DNA of 38,856 nt from a virus (IMGVR_UViG_2513237219_000004:1-38856); one strand, 5' to 3'. Positions 9,774-36,810 are shown, counted from the stretch's first letter. The notes: generated from the letters alone by a model not told the origin. A program made the numbers and translations.

Positions 9774-9814
9774 TCACCTTCATGGTGGTTAGTACGTCCT
9801 GCTGATGGCTTAAA

Positions 9815-9900
9815 ATATACCTACAGGTAAAAGTGTTGTCTATACCTGCAGGTAAATAAAATTGGTGTCAGAGTTTACCTGTTTGAATTTTCAGGTAATT
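9815..9900 (-). promoter_or_regulatory. OL/PL region with palindromic operator-like sites
   Basis: TACCTACAGGTA (9818..9829), perfect palindrome TACCTGCAGGTA (9843..9854), split TTACCTG-N9-CAGGTAA (9875..9897). Exact -35/-10 not resolved. Confidence 0.45.
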
Positions 9901-9916
9901 AATTTTTTGGATTGAT

Positions 9917-9941
9917 ATAAAAAAGCCCGCTTTGCGGGCTG
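9917..9941 (-). terminator. Intrinsic terminator after the cI operon (tImm-like)
   Basis: Hairpin GCCCGC-TTTG-GCGGGC (9925..9940) followed on minus strand by T6 (complement of A-run 9919..9924); 10 nt after stop of the 9952 gene. Confidence 0.55.
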
Positions 9942-9951
9942 AAAGGAGATG

Positions 9952-10248
9952 TCAGAAGCTATTTGGATTGCTTGGCCATTGCGGCAATTTTGATTCTACC
10001 GGGGTGTGTTTGGGTTTGAGTCCGTTTAAGTAGTCAAGACGCTCAATGGCGCATTTATACATAGCAATCTGATCTGATGACATGTCGTCATATGACATGC
10101 CTTTGAACTTCTTAATTATCGTTTCTGCCTCATGTATAAGATGCTTCTTCTTCATGAGTTCAGCTGTATGCTTAGAGCTTACAGGAGATAACTTTGCCCA
10201 TATGAAGCAGATGATTACAACAGCGACCACTATACCTGGTATAAACAT
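9952..10248 (-). CDS. Small single-pass membrane protein in rex slot, cotranscribed with repressor
   Basis: Track ORF 9952..10266 (TTG) with first ATG at 10248 (MFIPGIVVAVVIICFIW...); hydrophobic N-terminal helix; start abuts the repressor stop. Confidence 0.6.
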   Translation of the reverse strand: MFIPGIVVAVVIICFIWAKLSPVSSKHTAELMKKKHLIHEAETIIKKFKGMSYDDMSSDQIAMYKCAIERLDYLNGLKPKHTPVESKLPQWPSNPNSF

Positions 10249-10262
10249 TTGCTGCTTTATCC

Positions 10263-10784
10263 TCAAAATTTTGGCAGATCGTCCTGGTCTACGTACCTAG
10301 TGTGTTTCACAATAGCTGAAACAAAATGCATTTTATCAACTTCTTCAACAGGAAGAGTGATTGGACGGTGATCGCTGTTTATACTACTAAACTGATAGTC
10401 TCCGTCTCTTGTTTTGTTCATGATCTTTATCATGTTATGACCATCTTTGGTCCTTACAAAGACTTCATCACCTGGATGTACTGGCGTATTTGGTTCAATA
10501 ACAACATATTCTCCTGACTGAATCCTTGGCCACATGCTGTCACCCTTAACCTTCAGACCGTAAGCATCTTTATCGCCACTGTAGATGCTTAACCAACCGG
10601 ATCTGAATTCAATCATATCCACTGAGCCATCAACTCCCAAAACGGCTTCACCAATTACCGGAACAAAACCCGCACGAACGTTACCCGCAAACTCAAGATG
10701 GTCTGCAGATCCAACTTTGCTATCTGCAAGCATGTCCATCCATCCGCGTGGGAGATTAAAAGATTTTTCAATTAGTTCCATCAT
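10263..10784 (-). CDS. cI: S24 (LexA/CI-type) autopeptidase domain, C-terminal piece of CI-like repressor
   Basis: 173-aa ORF with GDSMWPRIQSGEYVVIE and GDEVFVRTKDG motifs; no HTH and no SD before its ATG; the frame stays open 36 codons upstream without a start. Confidence 0.75.
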   Translation of the reverse strand: MMELIEKSFNLPRGWMDMLADSKVGSADHLEFAGNVRAGFVPVIGEAVLGVDGSVDMIEFRSGWLSIYSGDKDAYGLKVKGDSMWPRIQSGEYVVIEPNTPVHPGDEVFVRTKDGHNMIKIMNKTRDGDYQFSSINSDHRPITLPVEEVDKMHFVSAIVKHTRYVDQDDLPKF

Positions 10785-10788
10785 ATCG

Positions 10789-10950
10789 TCAGCAATGCGT
10801 TTTTTTCCGTCTTTTTCCTTCCGGATACAGCATTCTGGAAACGTATGATGGTTCCCTTTCTATTCGACGAGCCAACTCTGAGGCCTTTCCATTACAGAAT
10901 CGGTCTCTTATCTCTATCAGCCTTAGTCGTCTTTGTTCGTATTTATCCAT
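10789..10950 (-). CDS. cI: HTH DNA-binding piece of CI-like repressor (53 codons, then TGA)
   Basis: Not in ORF track. Manual translation MDKYEQRRLRLIEIRDRFCNGKASELARRIEREPSYVSRMLYPEGKRRKKTHC; HTH-like GKASELARRIEREPSYVSRM; ATG 21 bp from an operator palindrome; ends in another frame just before the S24 ORF. Confidence 0.6.
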   Translation of the reverse strand: MDKYEQRRLRLIEIRDRFCNGKASELARRIEREPSYVSRMLYPEGKRRKKTHC

Positions 10951-10967
10951 GATTTAATTCTATCTTT

Positions 10968-11026
10968 GATTACCTATCGGTAAATAACCTGTGGGTATTG
11001 ATTTGTTTTTTACCTGCAGGTAAACT
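10968..11026. promoter_or_regulatory. OR region: operator palindromes with divergent PRM and PR
   Basis: TACCTATCGGTA (10971..10982), degenerate ACCTGTGGGT (10987..10996), TACCTGCAGGTA (11011..11022); PR candidate TTGATT-17-TAAACT (10998..11026); PRM candidate TTTACC/TAGAAT on minus strand. Confidence 0.5.
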
Positions 11027-11058: not shown

Positions 11059-11289
11059 ATGGAAGAACTCCGCTTGTATCTGAACTCCCTTTCACTGGAA
11101 GAGCAGAGAGAATTTGCCACCAAGTGCGGAACTTCTATCGGCTATTTGAGGAAAGCACTTAGCCGTAATCATGAATTGGGCGCAGCACTTTGTGTTCTGA
11201 TTGAGAAGTTCAGCAATGGTGAAGTGACTCGCAAAGACCTTCATCCGGTTGATTGGGAAAGCATCTGGCCTGAATTAATGGCTGCTTAA
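11059..11289 (+). CDS. cro: Cro-like HTH regulator
   Basis: 76-aa ORF, AGGAG RBS, HTH-like CGTSIGYLRKALS; first gene rightward of OR. Not lambda Cro. Confidence 0.7.
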   Translation: MEELRLYLNSLSLEEQREFATKCGTSIGYLRKALSRNHELGAALCVLIEKFSNGEVTRKDLHPVDWESIWPELMAA

Positions 11290-32530: not shown

Positions 32531-33826
32531 ATGGCTACGTGGCAAGGATCAAATGGCGGATTGTTAGCTGGTATCGGCGGCGTCAACTCAAACGCTCCGA
32601 GCGTAAATGACATCGGCAATACGCTTCAGCTTATCAGGCAGAACAATGATATTGAGCGTTCAGGCGCTAACAATGTTGGGCTGACTGCTTTGCAAGGTCT
32701 TTCAGGTATTGCAGGGGTGTTTCAGCAGGGAAAGCAGGCTCAGCGGCAGAAAGAATTTCAGCAGGCGTACGCTAATGCTTATGCGTCTGGTGATCGCGGT
32801 GCTTTGCGTCAGTTGGCTACTCAATATCCAGACCAGATTGAATCCGTTCGTAAAGGCATGGGATTCATTGATGAAGACCAGCGCAACTCTATCGGCACCT
32901 TAGCGGCTGGCGCTCGCCTTGCGTCATCATCTCCAGAAGCGATGCAATCATGGCTGCAAAACAACGCCAAGGAACTGACTCGCGTCGGTGTTGACCCTAA
33001 CAGCGTTGCTCAGATGTATCAGCAGAACCCTTCAGGATTTGGTGAGTTTGTTGATCACCTTGGAATGGCTGCTCTTGGTCCGATTGATTACTTCAATGTT
33101 CAGGACAAGATGGCAGGTCGTGAGATTGACCGAGGCAGGCTGGCAGAGACAATCCGCAGCAATCAGGCTGGAGAGGCGCTAACAGCGCGTGGTCAGGACA
33201 TCCAGATACGTGGACAGAACATCAGCGCACAGAATGCTGCTCTTTCCCGCGAAATACAAAGAGCAGAATTACAAGAAAAGGCTCTGGACAGACAAATAGC
33301 CAGAGAAAGCAATCAGTTAAAGCTTGAAGAGCTAAAACAGAAACAGGCAGATGTTCGGCAAAAGGCTGACATAGCCCGCGCTGACAGGCAGGCCGCCGCT
33401 CAGGGTGCAGTTGATACATTCAGCACCGCGCTTGATTCTCTCAACGAGATAGAGCAAAGCCCCGGCCTTTCAAAAGCAGTAGGAATTCGCTCAGCGTTTC
33501 CGACAGTTCCTGGCTCTGATGCAGCTAACTTTGAAGCAAGGCTCGACACCTTTAAAGCTCAAACATTCCTTCCTATGGTGCAGTCCCTTAAGGGTATGGG
33601 GGCTCTTTCAGATGCTGAGGGTAAAAAATTATCCGATGCGGTTGGTGCCCTAAGCCCCAAAATGAGTGAAAAGGCTTTTCGTGACTCTATCGGAAAGATT
33701 AGAAATCAGCTTGAAAGCAAGTTGAGCACTGTTAAAAAACAGTTTGATTATCAGGAGCCGGTGCAGAATATGCCAGGGCAACAATCTACTACTGGCAGTA
33801 ACTTTTCTTCACTATGGGGTGATTAA
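32531..33826 (+). CDS. Ejection protein (P22 gp20 type)
   Basis: 431 aa, position after gp7; coiled-coil rich. Confidence 0.75.
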   Translation: MATWQGSNGGLLAGIGGVNSNAPSVNDIGNTLQLIRQNNDIERSGANNVGLTALQGLSGIAGVFQQGKQAQRQKEFQQAYANAYASGDRGALRQLATQYPDQIESVRKGMGFIDEDQRNSIGTLAAGARLASSSPEAMQSWLQNNAKELTRVGVDPNSVAQMYQQNPSGFGEFVDHLGMAALGPIDYFNVQDKMAGREIDRGRLAETIRSNQAGEALTARGQDIQIRGQNISAQNAALSREIQRAELQEKALDRQIARESNQLKLEELKQKQADVRQKADIARADRQAAAQGAVDTFSTALDSLNEIEQSPGLSKAVGIRSAFPTVPGSDAANFEARLDTFKAQTFLPMVQSLKGMGALSDAEGKKLSDAVGALSPKMSEKAFRDSIGKIRNQLESKLSTVKKQFDYQEPVQNMPGQQSTTGSNFSSLWGD

Positions 33827-34185
33827 TGGCTAAAGCATGGAAAGATGTTATCGCCTCTCCACAGTATCAGGCGTTAGCACCAGAACAAAAAGCGCAGGCT
33901 CAGGAGCAATACTTCAATGAAGTCGTGGCCCCGCAAGCCGGAGAAAATGCAGAGCAGGCTAAGCAAGCTTTCTATGCTGCCTATCCATTGCCATCTGTGC
34001 AGACAGTGGAGACACAACAACCAGTATCACAGCAACAACCACAGCAAAGTGGATTTATGTCTGATCTTGGCGAAGCAGTAAAAGAGACTGGTCGCGGACT
34101 GGTGCAGGCTGGCGTGAACGTGGCAAACATACCTGCATCAGTTGCCGATGCTGTAACCAAGCGCGGCGGCTTGGGCTGGCGGTAA
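33826..34185 (+). CDS. Ejection protein gp16-like, N-terminal piece (frame 1)
   Basis: 119-aa ORF starting with TAATG overlap on gp20 stop; ends at TAA 34183..34185 while the next frame is already open from 34157. Confidence 0.55.
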   Translation: MAKAWKDVIASPQYQALAPEQKAQAQEQYFNEVVAPQAGENAEQAKQAFYAAYPLPSVQTVETQQPVSQQQPQQSGFMSDLGEAVKETGRGLVQAGVNVANIPASVADAVTKRGGLGWR

Positions 34186-34270
34186 ACTCGGTATTGGCGA
34201 TGGGACATATCAACCAGCACCACGAGTAACAACGCAGGGATTAGAGCAGGACTTTGGCCTTCAGCAAGGT

Positions 34271-35824
34271 GTGCTGACTCCACAAACGACAGAGGGAAGG
34301 GTATTTGCTGAAGCATTGCCTTACCTCACTCCTGCTGGCGTTGAGAGAGCGGCGGCACAGGCACCAACACTTGCTGGTCGAATTGCTCAGGGGGCAACTC
34401 GACTTCTCGCAGAAAACGCAGTTGGATCACTTGCTGCAAACAGTATGAAAGATGATGCGGAAGCACTCGCTACCGATTTAGGTGTTGGCGTTCTGGCAGG
34501 CGGCGCTATTAACGCTGCTGGACGTGGATTAGGTGCTGCTTATCGTGGCGTTCGCGGTGCTATTGCGCCAGAAGCGCAGCATGCTATCAGATTTGCAGAG
34601 CGTGAAGGAGTGCCTCTGCACACCACAGACCTGTTACAACCTACTTCCCGCGTCGGAAAAATGGCGCAAACGACAGCAGAAAATATCCCCCTGGCTGGCA
34701 CAAGCGGAATGAGAGCAACGCAACAGGAAGCGAGAAGCCAGTTGGTGCAGAGATTTGCTGATAAATTCGGTGAGTATGATCCAGCGGTTGTTATTGACAG
34801 CCTTAAAGCGAAAACATCAGGAATTCGTCGCGCCGCAGGAAATCGACTGGAGCAGGTTCAGAATGCCATGGCGGGAATAAACATTCAGCCTGCAAGAGCA
34901 ATTCAGCAGATTGATACAGAAATATCTAACCTGCAGAAGCTTGGTAAGGTTGCTGATAACGAGACTATTTCAAAACTTCAGTCCTATCGTGATGAGCTTG
35001 TTCGCAATGCTGGTCCTGATGGTCCGGTAAATCTGGATTTGAAGCAATTAAGCGATCTGCGCAGCCAGTTCAGAATGGACGTGAAGGGGGAGCGACCAGT
35101 GTTACCAAACCGTTCCGATGCTGCCATTCAGCGCGTTTACAAGGCAATGACCGACGATATCAATGGTGCCATTGGTCAGAATCTTGGCAACGATACTCTC
35201 CGTAAATATCAGCAAGCCAATGCCGTCTACGCTGACGAAGCGGCTAAACTAAAGAATACCAGGCTGAAGAATGTTCTCATGAAAGGCGACCTGACGCCGG
35301 AAGTTGTCAACAACATGCTATTCAGCAAGAACAAATCGGAAATTAAGACGCTGTATAACTCAGTTGGTCGTGTTGGCAGGGCGCAAATGCGCAATGGCAT
35401 CATTGGAAAGGCGATGGAGAAATCTGGCGGATCCCCTGACCAGTTCCTTCGGCAGCTTAATATCCTGCAAAACCAGACTGGCATCACATTTAAAGGTCAG
35501 GAAGCCGCTTATCTGAAAGGATTAAAAAACTACCTGCAATCCACGCAGCAGGCTGCAAAAGCGGCAATAACAACACCCACAGGGCAGCAAACTATCCCGT
35601 TCATTATTGGGTATGGGACGGCAATGAACCCGGCTACAACTGGCGCAGCAGTAAGCTACGGACTTCTTACTCGCGCCTATGAGAGCGAGCCATTCAGAAA
35701 TGCAATGCTCCGAATGGCAAACACCCCACGCGGATCGACAGCGTTTGAGAAAGCCATGCAGCAAGCGCAAAAAGCGATTAATGCACTGACGCAGGGTGCT
35801 AAGTCTGATTCGTTGTCAGAATAG
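34271..35824 (+). CDS. Ejection protein gp16-like, C-terminal piece (frame 2)
   Basis: 517-aa track ORF from a GTG without clear SD; its frame is open back to 34157 with no ATG, so it is probably the continuation of 33826..34185. Confidence 0.65.
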   Translation: MLTPQTTEGRVFAEALPYLTPAGVERAAAQAPTLAGRIAQGATRLLAENAVGSLAANSMKDDAEALATDLGVGVLAGGAINAAGRGLGAAYRGVRGAIAPEAQHAIRFAEREGVPLHTTDLLQPTSRVGKMAQTTAENIPLAGTSGMRATQQEARSQLVQRFADKFGEYDPAVVIDSLKAKTSGIRRAAGNRLEQVQNAMAGINIQPARAIQQIDTEISNLQKLGKVADNETISKLQSYRDELVRNAGPDGPVNLDLKQLSDLRSQFRMDVKGERPVLPNRSDAAIQRVYKAMTDDINGAIGQNLGNDTLRKYQQANAVYADEAAKLKNTRLKNVLMKGDLTPEVVNNMLFSKNKSEIKTLYNSVGRVGRAQMRNGIIGKAMEKSGGSPDQFLRQLNILQNQTGITFKGQEAAYLKGLKNYLQSTQQAAKAAITTPTGQQTIPFIIGYGTAMNPATTGAAVSYGLLTRAYESEPFRNAMLRMANTPRGSTAFEKAMQQAQKAINALTQGAKSDSLSE

Positions 35825-35914: not shown

Positions 35915-36400
35915 TTATCTGATGTTACTGCTACTGTTGCATGTTACCGTGTTTCCAAATCCTGAATTGCAGTTTGTATATGTGTCAACGCGTGTTGGGT
36001 AAGGTTGAGTTATAACAGGCTGGCGCGCTTTTTGCTCGATCGCTTGCATTGTGTTTACAGCCTGATAATTCAATAAAGCCTGCTGGAATGCTTGGCTTTG
36101 TGCTATTTGTTGGGCTTGTTCTTGGATTTGTAATTGAACATAAAGATTCTGAAGCTCAAGTCTTGCCTGTGCGTCACTTATCTTGCCTTCATCGACACCT
36201 TGCCCGAGCATCTTTGCAGCAAGGACATACAGCTTAGGTGTTGGTGCTGATGCCATGCGTGAGTCGTTCTTCACACTGGCATCAAGGCAATTAGCCATAT
36301 CGCTAAGCTTTTGATAGCGTTGTTCGCAACTTGCTTGATAGTCACTTACTTTTGCGCATCCAACCAGCAGAATCGGGATAATTAACAGTGATTTTTTCAT
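35915..36400 (-). CDS. Lipoprotein in the sieA/immI slot
   Basis: Track ORF 35915..36436 trimmed to ATG at 36400 after AAGGAG; signal peptide with lipobox LLVGC (MKKSLLIIPILLVGC); Gln-rich coiled-coil body. Confidence 0.7.
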   Translation of the reverse strand: MKKSLLIIPILLVGCAKVSDYQASCEQRYQKLSDMANCLDASVKNDSRMASAPTPKLYVLAAKMLGQGVDEGKISDAQARLELQNLYVQLQIQEQAQQIAQSQAFQQALLNYQAVNTMQAIEQKARQPVITQPYPTRVDTYTNCNSGFGNTVTCNSSSNIR

Positions 36401-36470
36401 ATGGTTAACTCTCCTTAGTTTTTCACAGGATATCATGAAGGCTATGCCATTTTAGCCGGAAACTAGATTT

Positions 36471-36737
36471 CTATGTTTCCTTTTTATTATTGCTATACAT
36501 GGTCTTAAGCGTATCAAAGACAATTTTCTTAACCATCTCAGATTGTTGTTCTGCTATACGCTCTGCATCGTCAATGTAAACGGATGCAGAGCTTTGTTTA
36601 GCCAATGATTCTTCAATCGCTGCAATTATCTCTGAGTTCAGCGATCTGTTATTCATCTTCGCACGCTGTTTAATTTTCGCGTGGAGTTCATGCGGAAGTC
36701 TCAAGTGAAACTGCGCCTCGTCGTATTTGCTGTACAT
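36471..36737 (-). CDS. mnt: Mnt-like ribbon-helix-helix repressor
   Basis: Internal ATG (MYSKYDEAQFHLRLPHELHAKIKQRAKMNNRSLNSE...DAERIAEQQSEMVKKIVFDTLK) resembles P22 Mnt by recall; GGTGAGG RBS. Confidence 0.75.
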   Translation of the reverse strand: MYSKYDEAQFHLRLPHELHAKIKQRAKMNNRSLNSEIIAAIEESLAKQSSASVYIDDAERIAEQQSEMVKKIVFDTLKTMYSNNKKET

Positions 36738-36810
36738 CCTTGATGCCTCACCAGTTGGGTGGAATGGCATCGTAACCTACTGGATAAATACTCAATAGTA
36801 CCATTTCGGT

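Follow-up and report, generated by a model that had tools for sequence, protein, structure and literature searches.

A single-pass membrane protein family in the repressor-downstream and sieA positions of lambdoid prophages: a candidate superinfection-exclusion system

The viral sequence IMGVR_UViG_2513237219_000004:1-38856 (hereafter the window, meaning the whole analyzed stretch of 38,856 nucleotides (nt)) is a whole P22-like prophage, with genes in integrase-to-tailspike order and with P22-type portal, coat, gp7, gp20 and gene 16. Directly behind its cI repressor gene, on the minus strand, lies a small open reading frame (ORF), here called ORF98. A first-pass annotation had singled it out as a 98–104 amino acid (aa) protein with one N-terminal transmembrane helix, placed where lambda carries rexAB, and both the position and the size were borne out. 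The family to which this protein can be assigned occupies two prophage-expressed cassette sites, one behind cI and the other downstream of the sieA promoter, where it takes the place of sieA, and its members are candidates for superinfection exclusion at the inner membrane. The features at the center of the locus are as follows:

9952–10248, minus strand: coding sequence (CDS) of ORF98, a predicted 98-aa single-pass membrane protein; stop codon at 9952–9954; match to PHROG 10450 at E=1.3e-55
10260–10264, minus strand: Shine-Dalgarno-like GAGGA, read from the sequence, which overlaps the cI stop codon and lies 11 nt before the ORF98 ATG
10263–10950, minus strand: cI repressor gene, S24/LexA-type, split in this copy into ORFs of 53 aa and 173 aa
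9917–9940, minus strand: predicted intrinsic terminator; stem 9940–9924, 7 bp (6 G-C pairs), 3-nt loop, T6; −12.6 kcal/mol, z = −2.5

Two start codons are available to ORF98. A TTG, which overlaps the cI stop codon (TGA, 10265–10263), yields 104 aa (9952–10266), and an ATG 14 nt downstream of that stop codon yields 98 aa (9952–10248). The ATG at 10248 appears the likelier start, because the PHROG 10450 profile aligns with residues 7–104, all relatives share the N-terminus M-[FYW]-I-[PS], the codon at this position is always ATG (23 of 29 copies) or GTG (the other 6), and GAGGA lies upstream. The junction between cI and ORF98 (10249–10262) is identical in all 29 copies. The reading frame itself is intact in every one of them, with a pooled ratio of nonsynonymous to synonymous polymorphism (pN/pS) of 0.21, compared with 0.09 for the C-terminal part of cI, and the amino acid replacements are mostly conservative. 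ORF98 is accordingly a real gene under purifying selection. Two antisense ORFs on the plus strand (10082–10300 and 9932–10033) were considered as the real feature and rejected, since both the selection signal and the homologues are found in the minus-strand frame.

The predicted protein has one hydrophobic helix, at residues 2–20 (Kyte-Doolittle 2.5), in agreement with the first-pass annotation, and a single such segment is also found in all relatives. In the AF2 model the transmembrane helix is followed by a helical hairpin (helices at approximately 21–47 and 58–76) and then by a conserved W91-P92 tail. Models built from one sequence and from a 12-sequence alignment have pLDDT values of 71.6 and 79.4, respectively. 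The N-terminus bears no charged residue, and among nine family members there are no Lys or Arg residues before the helix and between 1 and 6 in the 15 residues after it. By the positive-inside rule, this charge distribution suggests that the N-terminus lies outside and the C-terminus in the cytoplasm, so that a hairpin domain of about 75 residues is predicted to be cytoplasmic. The GC content of ORF98 is 40.7%, which agrees with the earlier description of an AT-rich segment when set against the whole window (47.9%). However, cI is at 42.2%, and the AT-richness is a property of the whole immunity module, not of ORF98 in particular.

The terminator begins 11 nt past the ORF98 stop codon, slightly farther than the 10 nt first claimed, and is invariant in the 29 copies; its place before OL/PL was correctly called. 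The remaining features of the immunity region are these:

9814–9842, minus strand: PL-like promoter, beyond the terminator; the mEp043 record labels the same position “putative PL”
9817–9830 and 9842–9855: two OL operator palindromes, which overlap the PL-like promoter
10957–10984, minus strand: PRM-like promoter, TTTACC-16-TAGAAT
10970–11023: OR operator palindromes of the TTACCTGCAGGTAA type, between cI and cro, which match the OL operators
11059–11289, plus strand: cro-like gene, 76 aa
9720–11331: exchangeable immunity module (cro, OR, cI, ORF98, terminator, OL/PL), delimited by homology break points

Seven operator matches were observed where 1.45 are expected by chance. The PRM-like −10 hexamer ends 7 nt ahead of the cI ATG, and for this reason the cI messenger RNA would be leaderless, as in lambda. 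ORF98 is co-oriented with cI and is followed by a strong terminator. Because a gap of only 14 nt separates the two genes and no terminator intervenes, they are probably co-transcribed, with PRM as the promoter in the lysogen and PRE during establishment. Scans for Rfam families and tRNA genes found none in the window. The break points of the module are identical in 25 of 29 related loci (three run on leftward and one is cut by a contig end), and the module travels as one block; its identity to the window is 96.9% in phage mEp043 and 99.7% in Escherichia coli ECONIH4. The ECONIH4 prophage (locus L003, 723–2333) also carries an ISSpu7-family, IS1634-like transposase in the early-left region, its immunity neighborhood being otherwise 99.7% identical.

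ORF98 can be assigned to PHROG 10450, an uncharacterized family, on the basis of a full-length profile match (E=1.3e-55, residues 7–104 against profile positions 1–98 of 98). The initial impression that the protein resembles nothing recognizable is correct in that no family of known function was found. It needs amending in that the protein is already in GenBank as a hypothetical protein, mEp043 gp49, which is 96–97% identical and in the same position. When 1.84 billion representatives were searched exhaustively with HMMER, 10 matches at E<=0.001 were obtained, and a profile search gave 21 clusters; all source-given names are “hypothetical protein” from Enterobacteriaceae. A literature search found no paper that mentions ORF98, mEp043 gp49 or PHROG 10450. 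Profile and structure searches, which had been proposed along with the original description, likewise recovered PHROG 10450 alone and no characterized homologue. There was no significant match in Pfam (best E=0.11, 12 bits against a cut-off of 27, among families including YebO and SieB) or in NCBIfam (best E=0.015, far below the cut-offs). The window protein matched no defense profile in PADLOC-DB v2, where single family members gave scattered matches at E>0.005. A sequence profile search of the PDB found nothing at E<1, and neither did a Foldseek search of the AF2 model against PDB and BFVD.

Homologues down to 29% identity keep the length, the transmembrane helix and the motifs of ORF98. The family-invariant positions are L37, I38, E40, A41, M56, C66, A67 and L71; W91-P92 is near-invariant, and R70 and L74 are also among the invariant or near-invariant positions. 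Relatives fall into a clade behind cI, to which ORF98 belongs, and a clade in the sieA position. By count, the cI-slot type is present in 52 of 5,426 complete E. coli genomes and the sieA-slot type represented by phage N7 in 57 of the same 5,426. The N7-type paralogue is annotated in RefSeq as a “hypothetical protein.” The cI-slot ORF is left unannotated by RefSeq/PGAP in E. coli genomes (loci L003, L004, L069 and L070), which leaves the space from N to the “S24 family peptidase” empty.

The cI-slot clade contains three further subtypes, P0005, P0006 and P0024, which are 41–42% identical to ORF98 and 43–52% identical to each other. Each of their genes follows a same-family cI, starting 3, 4 or 50 nt past its stop codon, and has OL-type operators behind it. 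Across the four cI-slot modules the cI proteins are 82–87% identical and the Cro proteins 79–92% identical, while the membrane proteins are only 41–52% identical. Since four diverged subtypes all adjoin one cI family, the pairing of cI with the membrane protein is old and conserved, yet the ORF diverges several-fold faster than its co-transcribed neighbors. The mEp043 immunity module with ORF98 is found in the lambda-like siphovirus mEp043, in the HK97-like prophage MSB1_9D and in P22-like prophages such as that of STEC711. A restriction of the cI-slot clade to P22-like virions was therefore rejected, given its presence in lambda-like and HK97-like prophages. In E. coli MSB1_9D (L070, 39468–39656), a YebO-family gene, an HK97 gp15-like exclusion moron, lies between the tail chaperone and tape-measure genes; this prophage would thus hold two candidate exclusion genes together.

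The sieA-slot clade is 29–38% identical to ORF98 and is found in P22-like prophages and in phage N7 (Lederbergvirus). Its genes sit between gene 16 and mnt/arc/ant/tailspike, which is the position of sieA in P22, and in 29 of the 30 tabulated loci (31 of 32 if two strays are counted) they are convergent on the 3′ end of gene 16, at a distance of 12–25 nt. Upstream DNA was compared by direct alignment to P22 (L035), as consensus promoter scans upstream of three distant homologues were uninformative. In loci L032, L046 and L054 an identity of 96–99% to P22 runs from orf59a across the mnt terminator, the annotated sieA promoter and the ribosome-binding site, and it breaks off precisely where the GTG start codon is reached. 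A further four loci have the final 35–46 nt in common with P22, which brings to seven the number that carry sieA promoter and ribosome-binding-site DNA. The SieA motif FxRYPxEAxxFNK, sought with a relaxed regular expression in six-frame translations, is absent from the 32 family loci and the window and was found in P22 only. Because no locus also carries the SieA motif and the homology ends at the start codon, the family substitutes for sieA: in the sieA-slot clade a non-homologous reading frame has precisely replaced that of sieA and stands under the expression signals of sieA itself. A conserved partner gene in the sieA-slot operon was considered and rejected, since the upstream neighbors vary from locus to locus and the window has no equivalent of them.

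The window has a sieA slot of its own, with different contents:

35915–36400, minus strand: predicted lipoprotein of 161 aa, beginning MKKSLLIIPILLVGC..., with lipobox LLVGC; annotated only as hypothetical
36471–36770, minus strand: Mnt/Arc-like ribbon-helix-helix gene, upstream of the lipoprotein gene

Over the 29 nt upstream of the lipoprotein gene, identity to the segment of P22 sieA that is promoter-proximal and includes the ribosome-binding site is 86%. A promoter and ribosome-binding segment, …CATGGTATCCTG..AAAACTAAGGAG…, is conserved, with a junction at the start codon beyond which the CDS is unrelated: it encodes SieA, a member of the single-helix family or a lipoprotein. Since the slot in the window holds an unrelated lipoprotein behind the same expression segment, the sieA site is a cassette site, and the lipoprotein is another candidate exclusion cassette.

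Within the sieA-slot clade, family subtype tracks the type of gp16 rather than that of gp20 or immI (loci L037–L061 and L030–L034). N7-type genes at 98–100% identity pair with gp16 at 99%, except in one locus with gp16 at 91%, while gp20 and immI vary freely. A single 38-kb P22-like genome, IMGVR_UViG_2563366933_000009 (L016 and L050), carries both the cI-slot type and an N7-type copy in the sieA slot. The presence of both paralogues in one genome argues for different specificities, not redundancy.

Several characterized systems are similar to the ORF98 family in position or anatomy. SieA proteins are 162–164 aa or longer, with 3–4 transmembrane helices and the motif named above, and are divided into types A–C; mutations that escape SieA affect gp16 and gp20, in their C-terminal regions (Leavitt et al. 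2024, PMC10883804). Like P22 SieA, the ORF98 family consists of membrane proteins of lambdoid and P22-like phages that would be expressed from the prophage, and in either case a cytoplasmic location is predicted for the conserved part. The sieA-slot clade shares its position, promoter, ribosome-binding site and start codon as well. Unlike SieA, the family proteins are only about 100 aa long, with one transmembrane helix and without the SieA motif, and the ORF98 of the window lies behind cI, outside the sieA slot. An hhalign comparison of the family profile with P22 SieA gave a probability of 0.5%, a figure that covers neither type B nor type C.

The likeness to lambda Rex is likewise one of place. 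Comparison with the lambda record puts ORF98, like rexA and rexB, downstream of cI in the PRM transcript and before the terminator and OL/PL, and like RexB it is a predicted inner-membrane protein. However, Rex consists of two genes, for the sensor RexA (279 aa) and for RexB (144 aa), whereas ORF98 is the only gene between cI and the terminator and its product has a single transmembrane helix. RexB has four transmembrane helices. The hhalign probabilities were 0.24% for lambda RexB and 0.04% for RexA. The ORF98 family stands in for Rex in the cI slot and for SieA in the sieA slot but is a member of neither; homology, helix number, motif and gene number were all compared and none of them agree.

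Two other precedents are relevant. Prophage BTP1's bstA gene lies directly downstream of the cI of a P22-like prophage, has its own terminator and is highly expressed in the lysogen, and the conserved repressor-downstream architecture has been remarked on (Owen et al. 2021, PMC8585504). ORF98 resembles bstA in that it lies directly behind cI with a terminator after it. No PADLOC or Pfam match joins ORF98 to BstA. BstA is larger and DNA-binding in character. HK97 gp15, of the YebO type, is a small single-pass inner-membrane prophage protein, described where Leavitt et al. refer to it as said to block DNA entry (cited in PMC10883804). It shares with ORF98 one transmembrane helix and a short soluble part, but ORF98 does not lie in the tail gene cluster, where the YebO-family gene of L070 is found. 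The Pfam scan gave no match of ORF98 to the YebO family; no direct profile comparison was made.

We propose that ORF98 acts in superinfection exclusion, as an inner-membrane-anchored protein expressed from the prophage, a proposal that is based on position and anatomy only and to which we assign a probability of roughly 0.45. Under this proposal every transcript of cI, whether begun at PRM in the lysogen or at PRE during establishment, would include ORF98 as well. Its N-terminal helix would hold it in the inner membrane with the hairpin domain facing the cytoplasm, and from there it would hinder an incoming phage in delivering its DNA. The sieA-slot clade would act, as SieA does, on the gp16/gp20 ejection-protein conduit, and the fast divergence could reflect an arms race with a phage-encoded partner. 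The interval between cI and N is a documented defense slot, which holds rexAB or bstA (PMC8585504). A reading in terms of exclusion or defense is strengthened because distant homologues replace the sieA CDS behind the sieA promoter and because the pairing of cI with the ORF is kept in four subtypes. In this respect the original suggestion of an exclusion or abortive-infection function has gained ground, although the protein is not Rex-like in sequence or architecture. On balance, SieA-type exclusion is favored over Rex-type abortive infection, although the evidence does not settle the choice.

Several observations weigh against the proposed exclusion function. The searches described above revealed no sequence or fold likeness to any characterized exclusion or defense protein. 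Position is not function, and in the window itself the same sieA site is taken up by a lipoprotein that is unrelated. The fast divergence of the ORF is compatible with an arms race, and also with weaker constraint. Likewise, the covariation of subtype with gp16 could be functional matching or mere adjacency to gene 16. The ORF98 module crosses P22-like, lambda-like and HK97-like virions; consequently a P22-specific target cannot be assumed for the cI-slot clade. Finally, a mostly cytoplasmic domain is not an obvious blocker of a periplasmic conduit, yet the conserved motif of SieA is also predicted to be cytoplasmic.

Some of the same observations could be accommodated by an abortive-infection effector of the Rex type, in which the cytoplasmic domain senses a phage product and the helix oligomerizes and depolarizes or permeabilizes the membrane, so that the cell dies before phage release. 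The rexAB and bstA genes, both abortive-infection systems, share the slot of ORF98. A conserved domain predicted to be cytoplasmic would suit an intracellular sensor, fast divergence fits the co-evolution of sensor and target, and the occurrence of the module in three virion types makes an intracellular target as plausible as one at entry. We nevertheless regard such an effector as unlikely, although it is the most serious of the alternatives: the family has no homology to RexA or RexB and no PADLOC match, a lone 98-aa protein with one helix is not a pair of sensor and channel, and in the other clade the gene that is replaced, behind its own promoter, is sieA, whose product truly blocks entry. 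Somewhat less likely still is a lysogenic-conversion moron unrelated to defense, which might alter inner-membrane transport, the stress response or virulence of the host to the benefit of the lysogen. Non-defense morons are indeed found in prophage-expressed slots, the sieA cassette site takes unrelated cargo such as the lipoprotein of the window, and the family is unlike any defense family. However, both of its slots are best known for exclusion or defense genes, sieA is precisely the gene that it replaces, its members are confined to lambdoid prophages of Enterobacteriaceae, and a protein with a conserved host partner would not usually diverge so much faster than the neighboring genes do.

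The constant association of the cI-slot clade with one cI family, often at a coupling distance of 3–14 nt, could also indicate a regulator of the prophage's own cycle, that is, a membrane-tethered modulator of repressor stability, of induction or of lysis timing that is tied to cI. Some sieA-slot copies are found downstream of mnt, another maintenance repressor, which would be in keeping with such a role. The sieA-slot clade, however, lies behind the independent sieA promoter without an adjacent cI, and a partner of cI would be expected to co-evolve with it, whereas cI is 82–87% and the ORF 41–52% identical between subtypes; we consider a regulatory role improbable. The clear-plaque mutant mEp043 c-1 keeps the ORF98 gene intact and is uninformative on this point. 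The lack of annotation by RefSeq/PGAP in E. coli genomes might be taken to suggest that ORF98 is not a functional gene but a reading frame that arose by chance in the 3′ untranslated part of the cI messenger RNA. This reading is effectively refuted by conservation, namely by 29 intact copies of 29 with a pN/pS of 0.21, by start codons that are only ATG or GTG, and by the length, helix and motifs that are retained in homologues at 29% identity.

The copy of the prophage in the window shows three 1-base insertions, none of which touches ORF98. The first, at 10810 in cI, has no counterpart in any of the 28 relatives and causes the frameshift that yields ORFs of 53 aa and 173 aa; it reflects either a mistake in assembly or an inactivated repressor. 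An intact cI gene of 687 bp, or 228 codons, is present in ECONIH4, STEC711 and mEp043. A second insertion, at 34157 relative to E. coli H3, splits gene 16 (33826–35824) into ORFs of 119 aa and 517 aa, compared with 665 aa in H3, and a third difference of the same kind from H3 is found at 36438. Together, the three insertions suggest either a decaying prophage or assembly error and indel-prone sequencing.

Returning to the proposal of superinfection exclusion, its broadest form is that of an unrecognized family of single-pass inner-membrane exclusion proteins of about 100 aa, unrelated to SieA but interchangeable with it, which use two cassette sites, block the entry of phage DNA from the cytoplasmic face and rapidly evolve a specificity matched to gp16 types. 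We advance this form tentatively, as possible rather than probable. The cI-slot copies are invisible in RefSeq, and surveys of defense genes that start from annotated proteins would miss them. Prophage exclusion proteins of this kind would decide which phages superinfect approximately 1–2% of sequenced E. coli. A much simpler protein swapped into the sieA reading frame could serve as a minimal comparator for the unsolved mechanism of SieA and offers a directly testable candidate.
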